Positions 33,882 through 51,890 of a stretch of 64,000 nucleotides of DNA are shown in pieces. Under the pieces are notes generated by a model that had not been told where the DNA came from, ran no database searches, and worked only from the letters and a program-made list of their open reading frames with translations. Source of the DNA: Escherichia coli (lineage in GTDB: Bacteria; Pseudomonadota; Gammaproteobacteria; Enterobacterales; Enterobacteriaceae); NCBI RefSeq assembly GCF_044324875.1, contig NZ_CP172185.1, one strand, 5' to 3'. How positions within the stretch are numbered: position 1 is the stretch's first letter; each line of letters starts with the position of its first letter. The position numbers and the translations under genes are program-made.

Positions 33882-34901
33882 ATGGCAATAACCCGAAAAC
33901 GTCGTAGTACAGGTAAAGTCACTATTGCTGATGTCGCGCAACTCGCGGGAGTTGGCACAATGACTGTATCCAGAGCGTTACGCACTCCCGAACAAGTTTC
34001 AGATAAATTGAGGGAGAAGATTGAAGCCGCAGTTAATGAATTAGGGTATATGCCCAACCTCACTGCAAGCGCACTGGCATCGGCATCTTCACACACGATC
34101 GCAATGGTCGTGCCAAACCTGGCTGAAGCGGGATGCACGGAAATGTTTGCCGGGCTGCAACATGTGCTACAACCAGCGGGGTATCAAATAATCCTGGCTG
34201 AGTCACGCCATCGTCTGGAACAAGAAGAAAAACTGCTGGAAACCCTGCTGGCTTCTAATATCGCTGCAGCAATTTTGCTTAGTGTTGAGCATAATAGTAC
34301 CGTGCGTCACTTGCTCAAAAATGCCTCGATTCCTGTTATAGAAATCGGTGCCATTCGTACTGATCCGATAGATATCAACATTGGTATTGATAATGTTGCA
34401 GCAATGTTCGAGCTGACGGATATGCTGGTACAACGTGGTTATCAGAATATCGGTTTGCTATGCGCTAACCAGGAACAGTGGATCTTTCAGCAGCATTTAC
34501 AGGGATGGTATAAAGCTATGTTACGCCATCATATGTCTCCCAACCGTGTTATTAACGCTGCTCTGCCACCTGTTTTTTCCACCGGAGCATCACAACTACC
34601 GGAATTTTTGCTCGCATGGCCGGAACTGGATGCCCTGGTATGTGTGTCAGATGAGTTAGCCTGCGGTGTTCTCTATGAATGTCAACGAAGACGGATCAAA
34701 GTTCCAGACGAGCTCGCCGTAGTAGGATTTGGTGACAGTGACGTCAGCAAAGTTTGCCAACCATCATTAACAACAATGGCCGTTCCTCACAGGAAAATTG
34801 GTCTGGAAGCAGGAAATGTTTTGCTGGAACGAATTAAAGAAGGTAACTGGAGCAATCAGATATTCATTGAGCCCTGTTTATGTTTACGTGAAAGCTGCTG
34901 A
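33882..34901 (+). CDS. LacI-family transcriptional regulator
   Basis: 339 aa; N-terminal HTH VTIADVAQLAGVGTMTVSRAL and periplasmic-binding-protein-like core; divergent from the PTS/transketolase operon. Confidence 0.85.
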   Translation: MAITRKRRSTGKVTIADVAQLAGVGTMTVSRALRTPEQVSDKLREKIEAAVNELGYMPNLTASALASASSHTIAMVVPNLAEAGCTEMFAGLQHVLQPAGYQIILAESRHRLEQEEKLLETLLASNIAAAILLSVEHNSTVRHLLKNASIPVIEIGAIRTDPIDINIGIDNVAAMFELTDMLVQRGYQNIGLLCANQEQWIFQQHLQGWYKAMLRHHMSPNRVINAALPPVFSTGASQLPEFLLAWPELDALVCVSDELACGVLYECQRRRIKVPDELAVVGFGDSDVSKVCQPSLTTMAVPHRKIGLEAGNVLLERIKEGNWSNQIFIEPCLCLRESC

Positions 34902-36848: not shown

Positions 36849-37085
36849 TCATGCTGCTGCTCCTCGTGATTCCTCAATTCGCTGCTGCATCCACTGCTCC
36901 ACTTCACTTTTGTACCAGCGGCTGCTGCGCCCCAGTTTGATGGGTTTAGGGAAATGGCCTTCACTGATCAGCTTGTAAAACCATTTGTCGGTCATACCAG
37001 TGAAGCTGGTGATGTAGTTCATGTCGATCAGGGGATCGTCGGCACGCAGCAATACGCTGTCGTGACCTGTCATTGAGGTCAACAT
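36849..37085 (-). CDS. alpA: AlpA-family phage/island transcriptional regulator
   Basis: C-terminal 57 aa MNYITSFTGMTDKWFYKLISEGHFPKPIKLGRSSRWYKSEVEQWMQQR is AlpA-like; alternative start at 37022. Confidence 0.75.
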   Translation of the reverse strand: MLTSMTGHDSVLLRADDPLIDMNYITSFTGMTDKWFYKLISEGHFPKPIKLGRSSRWYKSEVEQWMQQRIEESRGAAA

Positions 37086-42791: not shown

Positions 42792-43610
42792 ATGCGATTA
42801 GCCAGTCGTTTTGGTTATGCGAACCAGATACGCCGTGACCGTCCGCTGACCCGTGAAGAGCTGATGCACCATGTGCCCGGGATTTTCGGGGAAGATAAAC
42901 ACACCTCCCGGAGCCGGAACTATACATACATCCCCACCATCACCGTGCTGGAAAGCCTGCAGCGGGAAGGCTTTCAGCCATTCTTCGCCTGCCAGACCCG
43001 CGTACGTGACCCGGGTCGCCGGGGGTATACCAAACACATGCTGCGTCTGCGCCGTGACGGGGAGATAAACGGACAACATGTCCCTGAAATTATTCTGCTC
43101 AACTCTCATGACGGTACCTCCAGCTACCAGATGCTGCCGGGTTACTTCAGGTTCGTCTGCCAGAACGGATGCGTCTGCGGTCAGTCTCGGGGGGAAGTGC
43201 GTGTTCCGCACCGGGGAAATGTGGTGGACAGAGTCATTGAAGGGGCTTACGAGGTGGTGGGCGTGTTTGACCGGATAGAGGAGAAGCGTGATGCCATGCA
43301 GTCGCTGGTCCTGCCGCCACCGGCACGCCAGGCGCTGGCACAGGCGGCACTGACTTACCGTTATGGTGACGAACATCAGCCCGTCACCACCGCCGACATT
43401 CTGACACCACGACGCCGGGAGGATTACGGTAAGGACCTGTGGAGTGCTTATCAGACCATCCAGGAGAATATGCTGAAAGGCGGGATTTCCGGTCGCAGTG
43501 CAAAAGGAAAACGTATCCATACCCGGGCCATTCACAGCATTGATACCGATATAAAACTCAACCGCGCATTGTGGGTGATGGCAGAAACGCTGCTGGAGAG
43601 CATGCGCTGA
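42792..43610 (+). CDS. DUF932-family protein (YfjQ/YafZ-like)
   Basis: 272 aa; AGGAGC Shine-Dalgarno; sits at the position this family holds in CP4-type elements. Confidence 0.75.
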   Translation: MRLASRFGYANQIRRDRPLTREELMHHVPGIFGEDKHTSRSRNYTYIPTITVLESLQREGFQPFFACQTRVRDPGRRGYTKHMLRLRRDGEINGQHVPEIILLNSHDGTSSYQMLPGYFRFVCQNGCVCGQSRGEVRVPHRGNVVDRVIEGAYEVVGVFDRIEEKRDAMQSLVLPPPARQALAQAALTYRYGDEHQPVTTADILTPRRREDYGKDLWSAYQTIQENMLKGGISGRSAKGKRIHTRAIHSIDTDIKLNRALWVMAETLLESMR

Positions 43611-43691
43611 TGCCGTTTCCCTGAGTGAGGGAATCATTCAGCTTTCGTTCCTGAAAAACACACATTTATTTGTTATTTAAGGCGTTATCTC

Positions 43692-44171
43692 ATGAAAACC
43701 GTTTCTCAGAATACCCCCACAATTTATTCAGCTACAACACCAGAGAATAATCCGCCTCAGTTGGTTGCCAGCCTCGTCCCTGATGAACAGCGCATCAGCT
43801 TCTGGCCGCAGCATTTTGGCCTCATTCCACAGTGGGTGACCCTGGAGCCCCGTGTCTTCGGCTGGATGGACCGTCTGTGCGAAGACTACTGCGGTGGTAT
43901 CTGGAATCTGTACACCCTGAACAACGGCGGGGCATTTATGGCCCCCGAACCGGATGATGATGATGACGAAACATGGGTACTGTTCAATGCCATGAACGGT
44001 AACCGCGCTGAAATGAGCCCGGAAGCCGCCGGCATTGCCGCCTGTCTGATGACGTACAGTCATCACGCCTGCCGTACGGAGTGTTATGCCATGACGGTTC
44101 ATTATTACCGTCTGCGGGATTACGCCCTGCAGCATCCGGAATGCAGCGCCATTATGCGCATCATTGACTGA
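43692..44171 (+). CDS. Antirestriction protein, ArdB/KlcA family (YfjX/YkfF-like)
   Basis: 159 aa, ...FWPQHFGLIPQWVTLEPRVFGWMDRLCEDYCGGIWNLYTLNNGGAFMAP... Confidence 0.75.
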   Translation: MKTVSQNTPTIYSATTPENNPPQLVASLVPDEQRISFWPQHFGLIPQWVTLEPRVFGWMDRLCEDYCGGIWNLYTLNNGGAFMAPEPDDDDDETWVLFNAMNGNRAEMSPEAAGIAACLMTYSHHACRTECYAMTVHYYRLRDYALQHPECSAIMRIID

Positions 44172-44186
44172 AAGGGGGCCGGAACA

Positions 44187-44663
44187 ATGCAACAGATTTC
44201 CTTTCTGCCCGGAGAAATGACAACCAGAGAGCGCAGCCTCATTCAGCGGGCCCTGAAAGCCCTGGACCGCCATCTTCATGAACCCGGCGTGGCCTTCACC
44301 TCCACGCATGCGGCACGGGAATGGCTGATTCTGAACATGGCGGGACTGGAGCGTGAAGAATTCCGGGTGCTGTATCTGAATAACCAGAATCAGCTGATTG
44401 CCGGTGAAACCCTCTTCACCGGCACCATCAACCGCACGGAAGTCCATCCCCGGGAAGTGATTAAACGCGCCCTGTACCACAATGCCGCTGCCGTGGTGCT
44501 GGCGCACAATCACCCGTCCGGTGAAGTCACACCCAGCAAGGCAGACCGCCTTATCACGGAACGTCTGGTACAGGCGCTGGCCCTGGTGGATATCCGGGTG
44601 CCGGACCATCTGATAGTCGGTGGCAGCCAGGTTTTCTCCTTTGCCGAACATGGTCTGCTTTAA
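44187..44663 (+). CDS. RadC-like JAB-domain protein (YeeS/YfjY/YkfG family)
   Basis: 158 aa; JAMM motif HNHPSGEVTPSKAD. Confidence 0.85.
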   Translation: MQQISFLPGEMTTRERSLIQRALKALDRHLHEPGVAFTSTHAAREWLILNMAGLEREEFRVLYLNNQNQLIAGETLFTGTINRTEVHPREVIKRALYHNAAAVVLAHNHPSGEVTPSKADRLITERLVQALALVDIRVPDHLIVGGSQVFSFAEHGLL

Positions 44664-44725
44664 CCCGTCACAACCACATCACACCTGTTTTCACTTTTAT
44701 CTTCTGTCTTCAGAGGTATCCCATT

Positions 44726-44947
44726 ATGAAAATCATCACCCGTGGTGAAGCCATGCGTATTCACCAACAGCATCCTGCATCCCGTCTTTTTCCGTTCTGT
44801 ACCGGCAAATACCGCTGGCACGGCAGCACTGAAACGTATACCGGTCGTGAAGTGCAGGATATTCCCGGTGTGCTGGCTGTGTTTGCAGAACGTCGTAAGG
44901 ACAGTTTTGGCCCGTATGTCCGGCTGATGAGCGTCACCCTGAACTGA
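44726..44947 (+). CDS. DUF987-family small protein (YeeT-like)
   Basis: 73-aa ORF in the position YeeT holds between the RadC-like gene and the cbeA/cbtA pair. Confidence 0.65.
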   Translation: MKIITRGEAMRIHQQHPASRLFPFCTGKYRWHGSTETYTGREVQDIPGVLAVFAERRKDSFGPYVRLMSVTLN

Positions 44948-44961
44948 GTCAGGGCATTCTG

Positions 44962-45594
44962 ATGAGCAGAATTATCACCATCACAGTGTATACGCTGGAT
45001 GAACTTTCCTGCCCGGCACGGGAAAAAGCCCGCGACGGGTACCGTCAGCATCATGCTGACAGCAACTGGTATGAAAACGTGTATGAGGACGTCAGGGAGG
45101 TCTGTGGCATTTTCGGAATTGACCTCTGCCAGCGTGTTATCCGTCTCAGCAACGGCAGGTTTATGGAAGAGCCGTGCATCTGGTTCAGCGGATTCTGCAG
45201 CCAGGGACGGAGCCTGTTTTGAAGGACGCTGGCACTGGCAGTCAGCAACAACCAGGAGAGTCCGGGAGTATGCCCCGCAGAACCGTGAGCTTCATCGTAT
45301 CGCGGATGCCCTGCAGGCGGTGCAGAAACGTAACTTCTGGCAACTGCAGGCTGAAATCCACCACCGGGGACGTTACTGCCATCCGTTATCACTGTTACCC
45401 GGAACAGTCCGACTGGTCAGGCTATGACAGCCGATGCGGAAGCCGCTGTCAGCGAAGCCCTGCGCGACCTGGCCTTCTGGCTGTACCGTCAACTGGAAAA
45501 CGAGTACGACCAGATGACCTCAGACGCCGCTGTGGATGAGGCCATTCTCATCAATGCATACATCTTCACCGAAACCGGTCAGCGCACCGGCTGA
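44962..45594 (+). pseudogene. Unknown-function island gene split by two frameshifts
   Basis: 44962-45222 and 45424-45594 share a frame; the middle part (to 45427) is in the +1 frame. Confidence 0.4.
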
Positions 45595-45643
45595 CCTGTC
45601 ATCGTTAAACCATTCTTAACCACTTTTCAGAGAGGATTTTATC

Positions 45644-46012
45644 GTGTCAGACACACTCTCCGGGATAACTCATCCCGACGACAATCACGACCGCCCCTGG
45701 TGGGGGCTTCCCTGCACAGTGAGGCCCTGTTTTGGCGCCCGTCTGGTGCAGGAGGGTAACCGCCTGCATTACCTTGCCGACCGCGCCGGCATCAGAGGCC
45801 GGTTCAGCGATGCGGATGCATACCATCTGGACCAGGCCTTTCCGCTGCTGATGAAACAACTGGAACTCATGCTCACCAGCGGTGAACTGAATCCCCGCCA
45901 TCAGCATACCGTGACACTGTATGCGAAGGGGCTGACCTGCGAAGCCGACACCCTCGGCAGTTGTGGTTACGTTTATCTGGCTGTTTATCCGACGCCCGAA
46001 ACGAAAAAGTAA
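45644..46012 (+). CDS. cbeA: CbeA/YeeU-family antitoxin (type IV toxin-antitoxin)
   Basis: 122 aa, MSDTLSGITHPDDNHDRPWWGLPCTVRPCFGARLVQEGNRLHYLADRAGIRG... Confidence 0.85.
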   Translation: MSDTLSGITHPDDNHDRPWWGLPCTVRPCFGARLVQEGNRLHYLADRAGIRGRFSDADAYHLDQAFPLLMKQLELMLTSGELNPRHQHTVTLYAKGLTCEADTLGSCGYVYLAVYPTPETKK

Positions 46013-46102
46013 ACCACCGGAATAACCTTCTGCTCCGGCCAGGTGTTTTCACCACGCCACTCTCCCCATAATTTAATCTCTCATATCAGGAAAATCTTCA
46101 GT

Positions 46103-46513
46103 ATGAAATTATTACCCGACACACATGTACGGGAGGCATCGTGCTGCCCGTCTCCCGTCACCATCTGGCAGACACTGCTCATCCGTCTGCTGGACCAGCA
46201 CTATGGCCTCACACTGAATGACACACCGTTCGCTGATGAACGTGTGATTGAGCAGCATATTGAGGCCGGCATTTCACTGTGCGATGCGGTGAACTTTCTC
46301 GTTGAAAAATACGCACTGGTACGTACCGACCAGCCGGGATTCAGCGCAGGAGCCCCGTCGCAGTTAATCAACAGCATCGATATTCTCCGGGCCCGCCGGG
46401 CAACAGGCCTGATGACACGTAATAACTACAGAATGGTAAATAACATTACCCTGGGTAGCATCCGGGGGCGAAACGATGAAACTTTCCCTGACGCTGGAAG
46501 CCGACAGCATTAA
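46103..46513 (+). CDS. cbtA: CbtA/YeeV-family toxin
   Basis: From ATG 46103: [56 protein letters not shown]...; track ORF starts upstream at 46043. Confidence 0.85.
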
Positions 46514-46898
46514 CGTGCAGGCACTGAACATGGGGCGCATTGTCGTTGACATTGATGGTGTAAATCTCGCTGAACTGATTAACAAGGTCGCTGAATACGG
46601 TTATTCACTCCGCGTGGTGGATGAACGTGACGCTACCGAAACACCGGCGACTTCTGCCAGCTCTCATCAGTTGCCGGAAGACAATACAGTGATACAGAGC
46701 GTGATGCCATTAACCACTGAAACAGCGCTGGATATCCTCATTGCGTGGCTGCAGGACAATATCGACTGCGGGTCCGGAATTATTTTCGACAACGATGAGG
46801 ATAAAACGGATTCGGCAGCACTGCTGCCCTGTATTGAACAGGCCAGGGAGGATATCCGTACCCTGCACCAACTGCAACTTCTGCACCAGAACCGGTGA
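46476..46898 (+). CDS. YeeW-like protein
   Basis: 140-aa ORF overlapping the cbtA 3' end, in the position of yeeW homologues. Confidence 0.55.
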
Positions 46899-46982
46899 AT
46901 CTCACTCACCAGACTTCATTCTCCTGACGCCAGCCTGAACAGAGCTGGCGTTTTCGTTTATAAACAGAAAGGAAACCCCATA

Positions 46983-47768
46983 ATGTCATATATCACAATC
47001 CCCCACCCGAACGCGGTCAACGGACATACAGCCGTTATCTGTTCCACAAGTATCAGACACATCCTGGCTGTACGAAAGAGTACACTGCTGCAAATCGACA
47101 CGCTTATCCGGCAACTGACAGAAATCTCAGCACTGACGGAAAGTATTGGCGGTAAAGCCGCCCCGGACTGGGCCATGAAACAGGATTTTCGCTGTGGCTG
47201 CTGGCTGAAGGAGAAACAGGAAACCGCAATGAAAGCCATTACCCGGAATCTTGACCGCGAAATCTGGCGTAACCTGATGCAGCGTTCCGGGATGCTTTCC
47301 TTAATGGATGCACAGGCACGTGATACATGGTACAGGTCACTGGAATATGATAATTTTCCGGAAATCAGTGAAGCGAACATTCTGAGCACATTTGAACAAC
47401 TGCACCAGAATAAGGATGAAGTGTTTGAGCGGGGGGTGATCAACCTCTTCAAAGGGCTGAGCTGGGATTACAAAACCAACTCACCCTGTAAATTTGGCAG
47501 TAAAATTATCGTCAACAATCTGGTGAGGTGGGACCAGTGGGGATTTCATCTTATCAGTGGAATGCAGGCAGATCGCCTGGCTGACCTGGAAAGAATGTTG
47601 CATCTGCTCAGCGGTAAACCGATCCCCGACAACCGGGGAATATCACCATTAATCTGGATGACCACATACAGTCCGTTCAGGGTAAAGGACGCTATGAAGA
47701 TGAGATGTTCATCATTAAATACTTTAAGAAGGGAGCTGCACACATCACTTTCAAAAGGCTGGAGCTGA
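46983..47768 (+). CDS. DUF4942-family protein
   Basis: 261 aa, MSYITIPHPNAVNGHTAVICSTSIRHILAVRKSTLL...; last gene before the island boundary. Confidence 0.65.
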   Translation: MSYITIPHPNAVNGHTAVICSTSIRHILAVRKSTLLQIDTLIRQLTEISALTESIGGKAAPDWAMKQDFRCGCWLKEKQETAMKAITRNLDREIWRNLMQRSGMLSLMDAQARDTWYRSLEYDNFPEISEANILSTFEQLHQNKDEVFERGVINLFKGLSWDYKTNSPCKFGSKIIVNNLVRWDQWGFHLISGMQADRLADLERMLHLLSGKPIPDNRGISPLIWMTTYSPFRVKDAMKMRCSSLNTLRRELHTSLSKGWS

Positions 47769-47935
47769 TTGACAGAATTAACGATATAATAGCCAGGCAC
47801 TTTCCTTCTGTGCTCTCAGCCTGACCCCGAGTTTGATTCCCTTTCGATATCAAAAGGGACTGCGGGTACAAAAGAGGGTACATCTTTCACCAAACCAAAC
47901 AAAATAAACCAATATCAACACGATAGAAGCATTCT

Positions 47936-47956
47936 TCGATTCCGAGTCCGGCACCA
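47936..47956 (+). repeat. 21-bp copy of a tRNA-Phe 3' end: island att direct repeat (distal boundary)
   Basis: TCGATTCCGAGTCCGGCACCA matches the pheU/pheV acceptor/T-arm end TTCGATTCCGAGTCCGGGCACCA with one G missing; no upstream tRNA body. Confidence 0.6.
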
Positions 47957-47965
47957 AATTCATAT

Positions 47966-47996
47966 AAACGGACCTCCACGGAGGTCCGTTTTTCGT
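47966..47996 (+). terminator. Rho-independent terminator hairpin after the tRNA-Phe fragment
   Basis: aaacggacctcc-acg-gaggtccgttttt. Confidence 0.55.
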
Positions 47997-48572
47997 TTCA
48001 GGACGCCACAATTTAAGCGTTCTGCCTAAAAATCATTTCTACCGAACTCAACCAGATTCTCCCCACATCACCAGCAATTTGCGGGCATATCCCAATTCGG
48101 GGAAATGTGTTCCTGAGCTATAGCACTGACTGACGTGAAATGTCGTGCGGCCCCGTGATGCTGTTGAACGTCAAATGACGTCATCAGGAGCGTAACGCAT
48201 CCATAAAGCACAACATCGGGCAGAACGCCGACTGATGAGATTTTCTGAATGAGAACAAAGAGAAATGTATCAGTCCGCTTGCTCATGCAAAGACTAACAA
48301 TCCATAAAAATAGTAAGCGCTCCGGGCAATTTTCCATGGATTATTTTCTGAACATTTTTCTTTGGCAAAGATGATGAATTTTGATGGTAAGGAATATTAC
48401 TTCTGGTTCTCAGTAAAATCCTTTCGTAATACTATGTGATCAAGAAGTTTATGGCTGGTAAAAATAACGTCTTGCATTCACCAATAATATGTAAATAAAC
48501 CCATCTATAGATGGTAAAAATAGGTTGTGGCAATTATCATTGCATCATTCCCTTTTCGAATGAGTTTCTATT

Positions 48573-50111
48573 ATGCAACAACCTGTAGTTCGCGTTGGCG
48601 AATGGCTTGTTACTCCGTCCATAAACCAAATTAGCCGCAATGGGCGTCAACTTACCCTTGAGCCGAGATTAATCGATCTTCTGGTTTTCTTTGCTCAACA
48701 CAGTGGCGAAGTACTTAGCAGGGATGAACTTATCGATAATGTCTGGAAGAGAAGTATTGTCACCAATCACGTTGTGACGCAGAGTATCTCAGAACTACGT
48801 AAGTCATTAAAAGATAATGATGAAGATAGTCCTGTCTATATCGCTACTGTACCAAAGCGCGGCTATAAATTAATGGTGCCGGTTATCTGGTACAGCGAAG
48901 AAGAGGGAGAGGAAATAATGCTATCTTCGCCTCCCCCTATACCAGAGGCGGTTCCTGACACAGATTCTCCCTCCCACAGTCTTAACATTCAAAACACCGC
49001 AACACCACCTGAACAATCCCCTGTTAAAAGCAAACGATTCACTACCTTTTGGGTATGGTTTTTTTTCCTGTTGTCGTTAGGTATCTGTGTAGCACTGGTA
49101 GCGTTTTCAAGTCTTGATACACGTCTTCCGATGAGCAAATCGCGTATTTTGCTCAATCCACGCGATATTGACATTAATATGGTAAATAAAAGTTGTAACA
49201 GCTGGAGTTCCCCGTATCAGCTCTCTTACGCGATAGGCGTGGGTGATTTGGTGGCGACATCACTTAACACCTTCTCCACCTTTATGGTGCATGACAAAAT
49301 CAACTACAACATTGATGAACCGAGCAGTTCCGGTAAAACATTATCTATTGCGTTTGTTAATCAGCGCCAATACCGTGCTCAACAATGCTTTATGTCGGTA
49401 AAATTGGTAGACAATGCAGATGGTTCAACCATGCTGGATAAACGTTATGTCATCACTAACGGTAATCAGCTGGCGATTCAAAATGATTTACTCCAGAGTT
49501 TATCAAAAGCGTTAAACCAACCGTGGCCACAACGAATGCAGGAGATGCTCCAGCAAATTTTGCCTCATCGTGGTGCGTTATTAACTAATTTTTATCAGGC
49601 TCATGATTATTTACTGCATGGCGATGATAAATCATTGAACCGTGCCAGTGAATTACTAGGTGAGATTGTTCAATCATCCCCCGAATTTACCTACGCGAGA
49701 GCAGAAAAAGCATTAGTTGATATCGTGCGCCATTCTCAACATCCTTTGGATGAAAAACAATTAGCAGCACTGAACACAGAAATAAATAACATTGTTACAC
49801 TACCGGAATTGAATAACCTGTCCATTATATATCAAATAAAAGCGGTCAGTGCTCTGGTAAAAGGTAAAACAGATGAGTCTTACCAGGCGATAAATACTGG
49901 CATTGATCTTGAAATGTCCTGGCTAAATTATGTGTTGCTTGGCAAGGTTTATGAAATGAAGGGGATGAACCGGGAAGCAGCTGATGCATATCTCACCGCC
50001 TTTAATTTACGCCCAGGGGCAAACACCCTTTACTGGATTGAAAATGGTATATTCCAGACTTCTGTTCCTTATGTTGTACCTTATCTCGACAAATTTCTCG
50101 CTTCAGAATAA
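48573..50111 (+). CDS. cadC: Membrane-integrated transcriptional activator CadC
   Basis: 512 aa, MQQPVVRVGEWLVTPSINQISRNGRQLTLEPRLIDLLVFF...; winged-helix N-terminus, single transmembrane segment. Confidence 0.95.
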   Translation: MQQPVVRVGEWLVTPSINQISRNGRQLTLEPRLIDLLVFFAQHSGEVLSRDELIDNVWKRSIVTNHVVTQSISELRKSLKDNDEDSPVYIATVPKRGYKLMVPVIWYSEEEGEEIMLSSPPPIPEAVPDTDSPSHSLNIQNTATPPEQSPVKSKRFTTFWVWFFFLLSLGICVALVAFSSLDTRLPMSKSRILLNPRDIDINMVNKSCNSWSSPYQLSYAIGVGDLVATSLNTFSTFMVHDKINYNIDEPSSSGKTLSIAFVNQRQYRAQQCFMSVKLVDNADGSTMLDKRYVITNGNQLAIQNDLLQSLSKALNQPWPQRMQEMLQQILPHRGALLTNFYQAHDYLLHGDDKSLNRASELLGEIVQSSPEFTYARAEKALVDIVRHSQHPLDEKQLAALNTEINNIVTLPELNNLSIIYQIKAVSALVKGKTDESYQAINTGIDLEMSWLNYVLLGKVYEMKGMNREAADAYLTAFNLRPGANTLYWIENGIFQTSVPYVVPYLDKFLASE

Positions 50112-50476
50112 GTAACTCCCGGGTTGATTTATGCTCGGGAATATTTGTTGTTGAGTTTTTGTATGTTCCTGTTGGTATAATATGTTGCGGCAATTTATTT
50201 GCCGCATAATTTTTATCACATAAATTTAACCAGGAAATATCCCGCAATCCATTGTAAACATTGAATGTTTATCTTTTCATGATATCAACTTGCGATCCTG
50301 ATGTGTTAATAAAAAACCTCAAGTTCTCACTTACAGAAACTTTTGTGTTATTTCACCTAATCTTTAGGATTAATCCTTTTTTCGTGAGTATTCTTAGCGC
50401 CAGTTTGGTCTGGTCAGGAAATAGTTATACATCATGACCCGGACTCCAAATTCAAAAATGAAATTAGGAGAAGAGC
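50112..50476 (+). promoter_or_regulatory. cadBA promoter region (Pcad) containing the CadC binding sites
   Basis: Intergenic region between cadC and cadB; assigned from established knowledge of the cad locus, individual sites not mapped. Confidence 0.5.
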
Positions 50477-51811
50477 ATGAGTTCTGCCAAGAAGATCGGG
50501 CTATTTGCCTGTACCGGTGTTGTTGCCGGTAATATGATGGGGAGCGGTATTGCATTATTACCTGCGAACCTAGCAAGTATCGGTGGTATTGCTATCTGGG
50601 GTTGGATTATCTCTATTATTGGTGCAATGTCGCTGGCGTATGTATATGCCCGACTGGCAACAAAAAACCCGCAACAAGGTGGCCCAATTGCTTATGCCGG
50701 AGAAATTTCCCCTGCATTTGGTTTTCAGACAGGTGTTCTTTATTACCATGCTAACTGGATTGGTAACCTGGCGATTGGTATTACCGCTGTATCTTATCTT
50801 TCCACCTTCTTCCCAGTATTAAATGATCCTGTTCCGGCGGGTATCGCCTGTATTGCTATCGTCTGGGTATTTACCTTTGTAAATATGCTCGGCGGTACCT
50901 GGGTAAGCCGTTTAACCACTATTGGTCTGGTGCTGGTTCTTATTCCTGTGGTAATGACTGCTATTGTTGGCTGGCATTGGTTTGATGCTGCGACTTATGC
51001 TGCTAACTGGAATACTGCGGATACCACCGATGGTCATGCGATCATTAAAAGTATTCTGCTCTGCCTGTGGGCCTTCGTGGGTGTTGAATCCGCAGCTGTA
51101 AGTACTGGTATGGTTAAAAACCCGAAACGTACCGTTCCGCTGGCAACCATGCTGGGTACTGGTTTAGCAGGTATTGTTTATATCGCTGCGACTCAGGTGC
51201 TTTCCGGTATGTATCCGTCTTCTGTAATGGCAGCTTCCGGTGCTCCGTTTGCAATCAGTGCTTCAACTATCCTCGGTAATTGGGCTGCGCCGCTGGTTTC
51301 TGCATTCACCGCCTTTGCGTGCCTGACCTCTCTGGGCTCCTGGATGATGTTGGTAGGCCAGGCAGGTGTACGTGCCGCTAACGACGGTAACTTCCCGAAA
51401 GTTTATGGTGAAGTCGACAGCAACGGTATTCCGAAAAAAGGTCTGCTGCTGGCTGCAGTGAAAATGACTGCCCTGATGATCCTCATCACTCTGATGAACT
51501 CTGCCGGTGGTAAAGCATCTGACCTGTTCGGTGAACTGACCGGTATCGCAGTACTGCTGACTATGCTGCCGTACTTCTACTCTTGCGTTGACCTGATTCG
51601 TTTTGAAGGCGTTAACATCCGCAACTTTGTCAGCCTGATCTGCTCTGTACTGGGTTGCGTGTTCTGCTTCATCGCGCTGATGGGCGCAAGCTCCTTCGAG
51701 CTGGCAGGTACCTTCATCGTCAGCCTGATTATCCTGATGTTCTACGCTCGCAAAATGCACGAGCGCCAGAGCCACTCAATGGATAACCACACAGCGTCTA
51801 ACGCACATTAA
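50477..51811 (+). CDS. cadB: Lysine/cadaverine antiporter
   Basis: 444-aa APC-family transporter, MSSAKKIGLFACTGVVAGNMMGSGIALLP... Confidence 0.95.
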   Translation: MSSAKKIGLFACTGVVAGNMMGSGIALLPANLASIGGIAIWGWIISIIGAMSLAYVYARLATKNPQQGGPIAYAGEISPAFGFQTGVLYYHANWIGNLAIGITAVSYLSTFFPVLNDPVPAGIACIAIVWVFTFVNMLGGTWVSRLTTIGLVLVLIPVVMTAIVGWHWFDAATYAANWNTADTTDGHAIIKSILLCLWAFVGVESAAVSTGMVKNPKRTVPLATMLGTGLAGIVYIAATQVLSGMYPSSVMAASGAPFAISASTILGNWAAPLVSAFTAFACLTSLGSWMMLVGQAGVRAANDGNFPKVYGEVDSNGIPKKGLLLAAVKMTALMILITLMNSAGGKASDLFGELTGIAVLLTMLPYFYSCVDLIRFEGVNIRNFVSLICSVLGCVFCFIALMGASSFELAGTFIVSLIILMFYARKMHERQSHSMDNHTASNAH

Positions 51812-51890
51812 TTAAAAGTATTTTCCGAGGCTCCTCCTTTCATTTTGTCCCATGTGTTGGGAGGGGCCTTTTTTACCTGGAGATATGACT

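Follow-up and report, generated by a model that had tools for sequence, protein, structure and literature searches.

A short stretch of DNA upstream of cadC in this Escherichia coli genome resembles the 3' end of a tRNA-Phe gene with one G missing, and two questions follow: whether it is the right junction of a genomic island at pheU, as the original prediction proposed, and what the missing G signifies. In the 64-kb stretch analysed here (the window), the 21-mer TCGATTCCGAGTCCGGCACCA lies at 47936-47956 on the plus strand and is the sole match at up to three mismatches, with 0.00 matches expected from shuffled sequences. Compared with K-12 pheU, identity to tRNA-Phe reaches one base further left, to T47935, and the resulting 22-nt segment is one G short of the 23 nt that end tRNA-Phe, from the T-loop to CCA. 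The tRNA parts copied are the T-loop UUCGAUU, the 3' T-stem CCGAG, the 3' acceptor strand UCCGGGC and ACCA. From left to right, the junction consists of GATAGAAGCATTC, the repeat TTCGATTCCGAGTCCGGCACCA, then AATTCATAT, and then AAACGGACCTCC, ACGG, AGGTCCGTTT and TTCG.

Searching the 64-kb window for the full tRNA 23-mer (GGG) at up to three mismatches found nothing, because an indel is not counted as a mismatch, whereas the G-less 21-mer was matched. ARAGORN predicted no tRNA gene and Rfam returned no family at the gathering threshold across the whole window, so that a functional tRNA-Phe gene with a complete cloverleaf was not found there. Around the site, Rfam matches at E ≤ 10 were at chance level only; the snoRNA models, STnc130 and BsrF in 47700-48200 (E = 1.4-8.6) were rejected as chance. 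These results agree with the original prediction of a tRNA-Phe 3'-end repeat followed by a terminator hairpin (47966-47991), with no tRNA body upstream of the repeat. The features discussed below are collected in Table 1.

Table 1. Features around the island junction upstream of cadC (positions in the 64-kb window)
Feature	Position	Strand	Description or basis
AlpA-family small DNA-binding protein, 78 aa	36849-37085	-	ORF and translation
DUF932 protein	42792-43610		
Antirestriction protein	43692-44171		
RadC	44187-44663		
DUF4942 family pseudogene, last island gene	46983-47824	+	1-nt deletion near 47637, two reading frames
Island-side non-coding arm of attR (P arm)	47825-47934	+	Without K-12 counterpart
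GGGTACA-N5-GGGTACA direct heptamer pair	47864-47882	+	Candidate arm-type integrase sites
attR core direct repeat	47935-47956	+	TTCGATTCCGAGTCCGGCACCA; 22 nt corresponding to tRNA-Phe positions 54-76, GG for GGG
Fossil integrase-proximal arm (terminator and integrase leader)	47957-48119	+	Aligned with intact VTB97379v and PKF11 arms
Intrinsic terminator (predicted)	47966-47996 (hairpin 47966-47991)	+	11-bp stem, 4-nt loop, T-run
Fossil P4-type integrase (K-12 yjdQ pseudogene)	48120-48307	+	DNA alignment, tblastn, annotation
cadC (512 aa), first backbone gene past the junction	48573-50111	+	ORF list
cadB	50477-51811	+	ORF list
cadA	starts at or shortly after 51852 (ORF 51852-54038)	+	ORF list

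When the cadC-upstream region was aligned with the island-free pheU-cadC region of K-12, the alignment began precisely at 47935 and ran on through the spacer and cadC into cadB, with 98.4% identity over 47935-51008; no similarity to this K-12 region was found left of 47935. Gene order and orientation are those of K-12 (pheU, spacer, cadC, cadB and cadA). The repeat thus marks the exact limit of homology to the island-free genome, and backbone genes follow on its far side; this confirms the predicted right end at ~47956 and the identity of the site as pheU next to cadC. The repeat had been placed immediately upstream of cadC; cadC is indeed its neighbour, although 617 bp lie between the two and strict adjacency does not hold.

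On the other side, the DNA carries a right-end module (42792-47824) of the kind usual in E. coli tRNA islands, encoding DUF932, antirestriction, RadC, DUF987, YeeU, CbtA and DUF4942 proteins. A direct repeat nearly identical to the tRNA-Phe 3' end, a conserved right-end module with a non-coding arm adjoining this repeat, and the break in K-12 homology together allow 47935-47956 to be assigned with high confidence as the core of attR, the right junction of a genomic island at pheU. In tblastn with the intact LH50-c homologue, the DUF4942 gene was recovered in two pieces, amino acids 1-218 from frame 3 and 215-280 from frame 2, and the alignment had one gap only, at 47637. Because the PKF11 orthologue is also annotated as frameshifted, this lesion was probably inherited rather than introduced as a sequencing error.

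The opposite end of the island was predicted to lie outside the window, and this proved right: the 64 kb contain no tRNA gene, and tblastn found no intact P4-type integrase in them, only a fossil. None of the complete RefSeq E. coli genomes is 100% identical to the window, and the proximal end was read from the relatives PKF11, LH50-c and VTB97379v as proxies. In PKF11, the nearest junction relative (99.6% identity over the junction region), the order is dsbD, yjdC, intact pheU (GGG), terminator, integrase, island, frameshifted DUF4942, repeat (GG) and cadC. Its pheU and its intact 420-aa P4-type integrase lie 50.6 kb upstream of the junction, with ~50.6 kb of island between. LH50-c and VTB97379v share the cargo of the window at 98-99.9% identity over long stretches, and the matching island has its own P4-type integrase in each, which in LH50-c is found ~25 kb to the left of where the window start maps. 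Both strains carry this island as one member of a tandem array, in which repeat-terminator-integrase junctions occur internally; the array of VTB97379v is very large, and no tRNA was reached within 140 kb upstream. By analogy with these relatives, the source island would carry an intact pheU and an integrase at its proximal end.

The cargo genes were named by mapping the window to annotated relatives. They include xylA, an MFS transporter and a GH43 hydrolase, an HNH endonuclease, a phosphorothioate-dependent restriction pair and an IS3 element, a TonB-dependent receptor, ugpB and an esterase annotated as phytase-like, and maltose/glucose and ascorbate-type PTS genes, a transketolase and a YadA-like adhesin. 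At ~6412-8099 (mapped from 16778-18465 of the LH50-c locus L003), the HNH endonuclease stands beside a "phosphorothioated DNA-binding restriction endonuclease", a possible defence pair. The segment 23001-47753 also occurs at the selC locus, by setC, yicL and nlpA, in ECGC74 (locus L017, 43000-50000) and similar strains, and the ECGC74 similarity ends inside DUF4942, short of the att arm. This placement fits an exchange of modules between islands at different tRNA sites, and from these alignments cargo appears to have moved between selC-type and phe-type islands.

Several smaller observations concern the interior of the window. An inverted N-terminal fragment of a second DUF4942 gene (~49 aa, 70% identity) lies at 8503-8652 on the minus strand near the IS3 element (9207-10542); it looks like a relic of the right end of another island and hence a sign of composite origin. 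At 34387-34686, also on the minus strand, a stop-broken stretch matches residues 204-298 of a P4-type integrase at 26% identity (E = 0.004), and it may be either a decayed tyrosine recombinase fragment or a chance match. Positions 1-1085 match L003 5001-6082, a segment overlapping the carbohydrate porin gene of LH50-c, at only 89% identity. Between the blocks 1-1085 and 936-8823, LH50-c has ~5.2 kb extra that are absent from the window and encode a cellobiose-type PTS operon, a GH1 hydrolase and a LacI regulator.

Other accounts of the boundary were weighed against the attR reading. Two of them, a fortuitous likeness of the 21-mer to tRNA-Phe and an intact tRNA gene at this position, can be set aside with near certainty, given the empty expectation from shuffles and the empty ARAGORN and Rfam results, and the DNA left of 47935 could not be aligned to a tRNA body. 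It is highly improbable, too, that a deletion or an IS-mediated rearrangement truncated pheU and removed its 5' two-thirds, which would leave a strain without pheU and a boundary that is no site-specific junction. IS elements and pseudogenes abound in the island and no intact pheU lies within the window, as such an event might leave it, but the breakpoint falls exactly on the first T-loop base, the same junction with a conserved adjoining arm is present in more than 1000 genomes, and PKF11 has this junction together with an intact pheU upstream.

A further account accepts the boundary and questions what lies to its left: at least two tRNA-Phe islands might be arrayed in tandem there, the DNA next to the boundary being the last of them, or module exchange might have produced a composite. 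The tandem arrays of LH50-c and VTB97379v, in which the same cargo forms one unit, the occurrence of 23001-47753 next to setC at selC in ECGC74 and the inverted DUF4942 fragment all speak for it; PKF11, however, has a single island, and the window contains neither a second copy of the repeat nor an internal P4-type integrase. We regard an array or composite as possible, if somewhat doubtful. Since no second repeat or internal integrase is present in the window, at least the last 48 kb form one unit by att criteria. The predicted "48-kb-plus island" therefore stands as a single unit in this sense, while "one island" may oversimplify, as relatives have tandem arrays.

Junctions of related islands provided additional observations on such arrays. 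A second island family (L004, 20964-21423; L013, 10956-11420) ends with DUF4942 and a ParDE toxin-antitoxin pair, and its repeat matches the tRNA 3' end perfectly over 19 nt, ATTCCGAGTCCGGGCACCA (GGG), inside the attR motif TTT[C/T]ATTCCGAGTCCGGGCACCA. In tandem arrays, this repeat abuts the integrase of a window-like island. In Citrobacter (L020), Rosenbergiella (L025), an Enterobacteriaceae MAG (L028) and Rahnella (L029), partial tRNA-Phe repeats of ~18 to 50 nt precede the terminator-integrase arm; some begin at the anticodon stem, and point changes occur (GTCTAGCACCA, GAGTTCGGGCACCA). These look like tandem-array junctions in other genera. A locus labelled Chryseobacterium sp. 18061 (L030) has an enterobacterial tRNA-Phe and integrase arm and is identical to the contig of Citrobacter sp. 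18056 from the same study (L021/L020) over the ~190 nt compared after the tRNA, so that the label probably reflects contamination or mislabelling.

The island-side arm is kept before the repeat, at varying divergence, in ST131, strain 103, O103:H2, APEC, BL21 and NCTC10537. Its heptamer pair, GGGTACA-AAAGA-GGGTACA in the window, is the lone match in 64 kb (0.03 expected). Every aligned island-side arm keeps the pair though the arms differ among themselves, and the motif occurs exactly once in each att arm fetched, both island-side and integrase-side. The GGGTAYA-N5-GGGTAYA pair, 53 bp upstream of the core, is thus probably an arm-type integrase site. In addition, PKF11 and LH50-c have island homologues of the small ORF at 36849-37085 whose annotation is AlpA family or helix-turn-helix regulator, and the ORF is a candidate for a role in excision or regulation.

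To the right of the repeat lies a GC-rich hairpin (6 G-C pairs among the 11 of its stem) followed by the tail TTTTT. Its folding energy is -18.4 kcal/mol (z = -5.2 against shuffled sequences), and no shuffle equals it; with its T-run and above-chance stability it is a predicted Rho-independent terminator. The pheU terminator of K-12 has the same sequence, and so does the terminator that separates pheU from the integrase at the attL of these islands. From 47957 to ~48155, the window follows the integrase-proximal arm of intact islands base by base, except that a 12-bp deletion took out one of the two GGGTATA heptamers. In island-bearing strains, the attL arm and this fossil arm consequently extend the flanking repeat to ~200 bp of imperfect identity, not only 22 bp.

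The fossil arm leads into the remains of an integrase gene. Its start codon has changed from ATG to ATA at 48120, and the 12 N-terminal codons that follow read IALTDVKCRAAP, compared with MALTDAKIRAAKP in the intact gene; they are fused to approximately the last 60, with amino acids ~13-358 deleted. In tblastn with the PKF11 integrase, residues 359-391 matched 48154-48237 and residues 397-418 matched 48239-48304 (combined E = 7e-08). K-12 annotates yjdQ in the pheU-cadC spacer, and RefSeq lists integrase fragments there in other strains. We take yjdQ to be a P4-like integrase remnant; the K-12 record itself names no product. Positions 48154-48316 are orthologous to yjdQ, and both copies share the 12-bp arm deletion, the ATG-to-ATA change and the internal deletion. 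Orthologous position and residual protein similarity thus identify the window sequence as a yjdQ-type fossil P4 integrase, which follows the terminal repeat of the island here, whereas in K-12 it directly follows intact pheU. From these comparisons, the E. coli pheU locus, that of K-12 included, appears to keep the fossil of one earlier element. The terminator had been called native: it is present in K-12, but it is not pristine backbone, being part of a fossil integrase-proximal arm in front of an integrase pseudogene.

A species-level scan found the exact 36 nt from CACCA into the stem at 16 loci outside E. coli, counted as at least nine other genera of Enterobacterales; the loci come from Rahnella, Hafnia, Yersinia, Serratia, Klebsiella, Pluralibacter, Rosenbergiella, Citrobacter and E. 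albertii. Intact tRNA-Phe lies directly upstream in 11 of the 16 loci and partial tRNA-Phe repeats in the rest. Moreover, 12 of the 16 have a homologous integrase gene or fragment downstream in the same orientation, and these integrases are 56-97% identical to that of PKF11 over the matched stretches. The leader just past the hairpin diverges between genera, whereas the hairpin does not. Intergenic DNA passed on vertically would not be expected to show such constancy between genera; the terminator is best regarded as belonging to an element arm. It would have come with such an element and would supply termination to the tRNA after integration; the attL copy is predicted to terminate pheU, and the copy in the window could stop read-through from the island towards cadC.

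The missing G was traced through other genomes with a 70-nt junction query (coverage of at least 80%). The junction is present in 1273 of 5426 complete E. coli genomes, and the arrangement DUF4942-repeat-spacer-cadC in 886 of the 5426. No net indel occurred in any of 32 evenly spaced matches that reach the right end of the query (record span equal to query span). The attR of all six genomes aligned, ST131, strain 103, O103:H2 and APEC O2:K1 at pheU and BL21 and NCTC10537 at pheV (flank verified), reads GG despite substantially differing island-side arms, and GG was also found in LH50-c, J3 and the MAG locus L033. A sequencing or homopolymer error was rejected, as GG is invariant across independent assemblies. 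The original prediction that the repeat has lost one G is correct insofar as it reads GG where the tRNA reads GGG; decay of this particular copy is improbable, since GG is found in every attR of the family examined at pheU and pheV. On this comparison of sequences, the one-G-shorter repeat is a trait of the whole island family.

The linkage of GG to its neighbours is more specific. It stays with the island-side arm whichever of three sequences is joined on the right: the pheU-type arm, the native pheV flank or, in LH50-c, another integrase arm. Conversely, the pheU-type right partner reads GGG when its left partner is the tRNA (K-12 and the PKF11 attL) or the ParDE island family. The ParDE family differs from the tRNA as TTTCATT versus TTCGATT, likewise on the left side. 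All partners share the last 7 bp, GGCACCA, and the variable positions of all repeats observed fall left of the final GCACCA. This pattern suggests that GG comes from the attachment site of the island itself and is passed on together with the island-side arm.

A repeat that starts at the T-loop is classically expected to arise from a crossover in the T-loop, with the 3' part of attR derived from the host. The 22-23-nt identity block does start there and on its own would fit this alternative, which nevertheless needs at least three independent losses of the same G with no GGG survivor. Another explanation is that a displaced tRNA 3' end, no longer functional, lost its G by decay in this copy, and the loss might then signal an immobilised island. 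Such a fragment is free of selection, G-runs are prone to slippage, and imperfect repeats have been discussed as possibly stabilising islands (PMC11537424). Decay is nonetheless improbable here, considering that the identical GG occurs at pheU, at pheV and at a tandem junction in every member examined, although the island arms have diverged, and that it goes with the island arm and not with the right-hand flank.

We therefore lean, by a modest degree of confidence, towards a reading in which GG and the hairpin both belong to attachment sites of the element, strands are exchanged in GGCACCA, the K-12 pheU terminator is left over from the integrase arm of an ancient island, and related integrases throughout Enterobacterales have the 36-nt module with them in unaltered form. 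GG would belong to the attP half-site of the element and travel with the island-side arm. Because GG tracks this arm, strand exchange is placed within the last ~7 bp (GGCACCA): the linkage patterns suggest that the integrase exchanges strands to the right of the G-run, which would leave the tRNA at the other end (attL) intact. Integrases of the P4 family reportedly recombine at the asymmetric 3' end of tRNA genes, and the 3'-end crossover predicted for them matches the repeat variation left of GCACCA in the loci examined. The missing G, tied as it is to the island arm, is thus a pointer to the strand-exchange site.

Islands with this repeat have been described before. Table 1 of PMC11537424 gives the GI-pheV attR as TTCGATTCCGAGTCCGG-CACCA, the same 22-mer as in the window, in about 20 reference strains that include APEC O1, S88, ED1a, H10407, 536, REL606, 55989 and O103 12009, together with a second attR class, TTTCATTCCGATTCCGGGCACCA. 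For pheU as well as pheV, PMC6174562 reports a 22-bp repeat that is shifted by one base from K-12. The GI-pheV/GI-pheU islands with a "23-bp imperfect" attR (PMC11537424, PMC6174562) share the identical repeat, missing G included, and the right-end "yee" module (YeeU/CbtA and DUF4942) with the window; a P4-type integrase is found in relatives. Moreover, BL21 and NCTC10537 have, in their pheV attR, an arm nearly identical to the island-side arm of the window. The published table concerns pheV, whereas the island in the window occupies pheU, beside cadC, and the cargo (xylose/GH43, TonB receptor, ugpB, PTS, YadA-like adhesin and transketolase) is nearer to that of selC islands than to classical pheV virulence modules. 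The pheU islands named in a review (PMC7545054), namely PAI-CFT073-pheU (PAI II CFT073), PAI-S88-pheU, PAI-ED1a-pheU, PAI-CE10-pheU, the pheU-located LEE and SHI-3, share the site and the build (tRNA-Phe, P4-type integrase, mosaic cargo and terminal repeat); their cargo is unlike that of the window, and the comparison with them covered site and build.

The junction at pheU is accordingly real and the core of the original prediction correct, while the junction is of an ordinary, already documented kind: tRNA-Phe islands with exactly this imperfect repeat are known and catalogued in hundreds of E. coli genomes. It sets the right border of the island, which is useful for annotation and for the design of excision PCR, and brings no conceptual change. 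Reading the G-less repeat as an element-side signature and the flank as a fossil arm are modest refinements, partly implicit in existing annotation and literature. The flank right of the repeat is a fossil attL-type arm that is also present in island-free K-12, which cautions against labelling it as backbone. Together, the arm-linked G and the fossil flank refine how such island boundaries are read.
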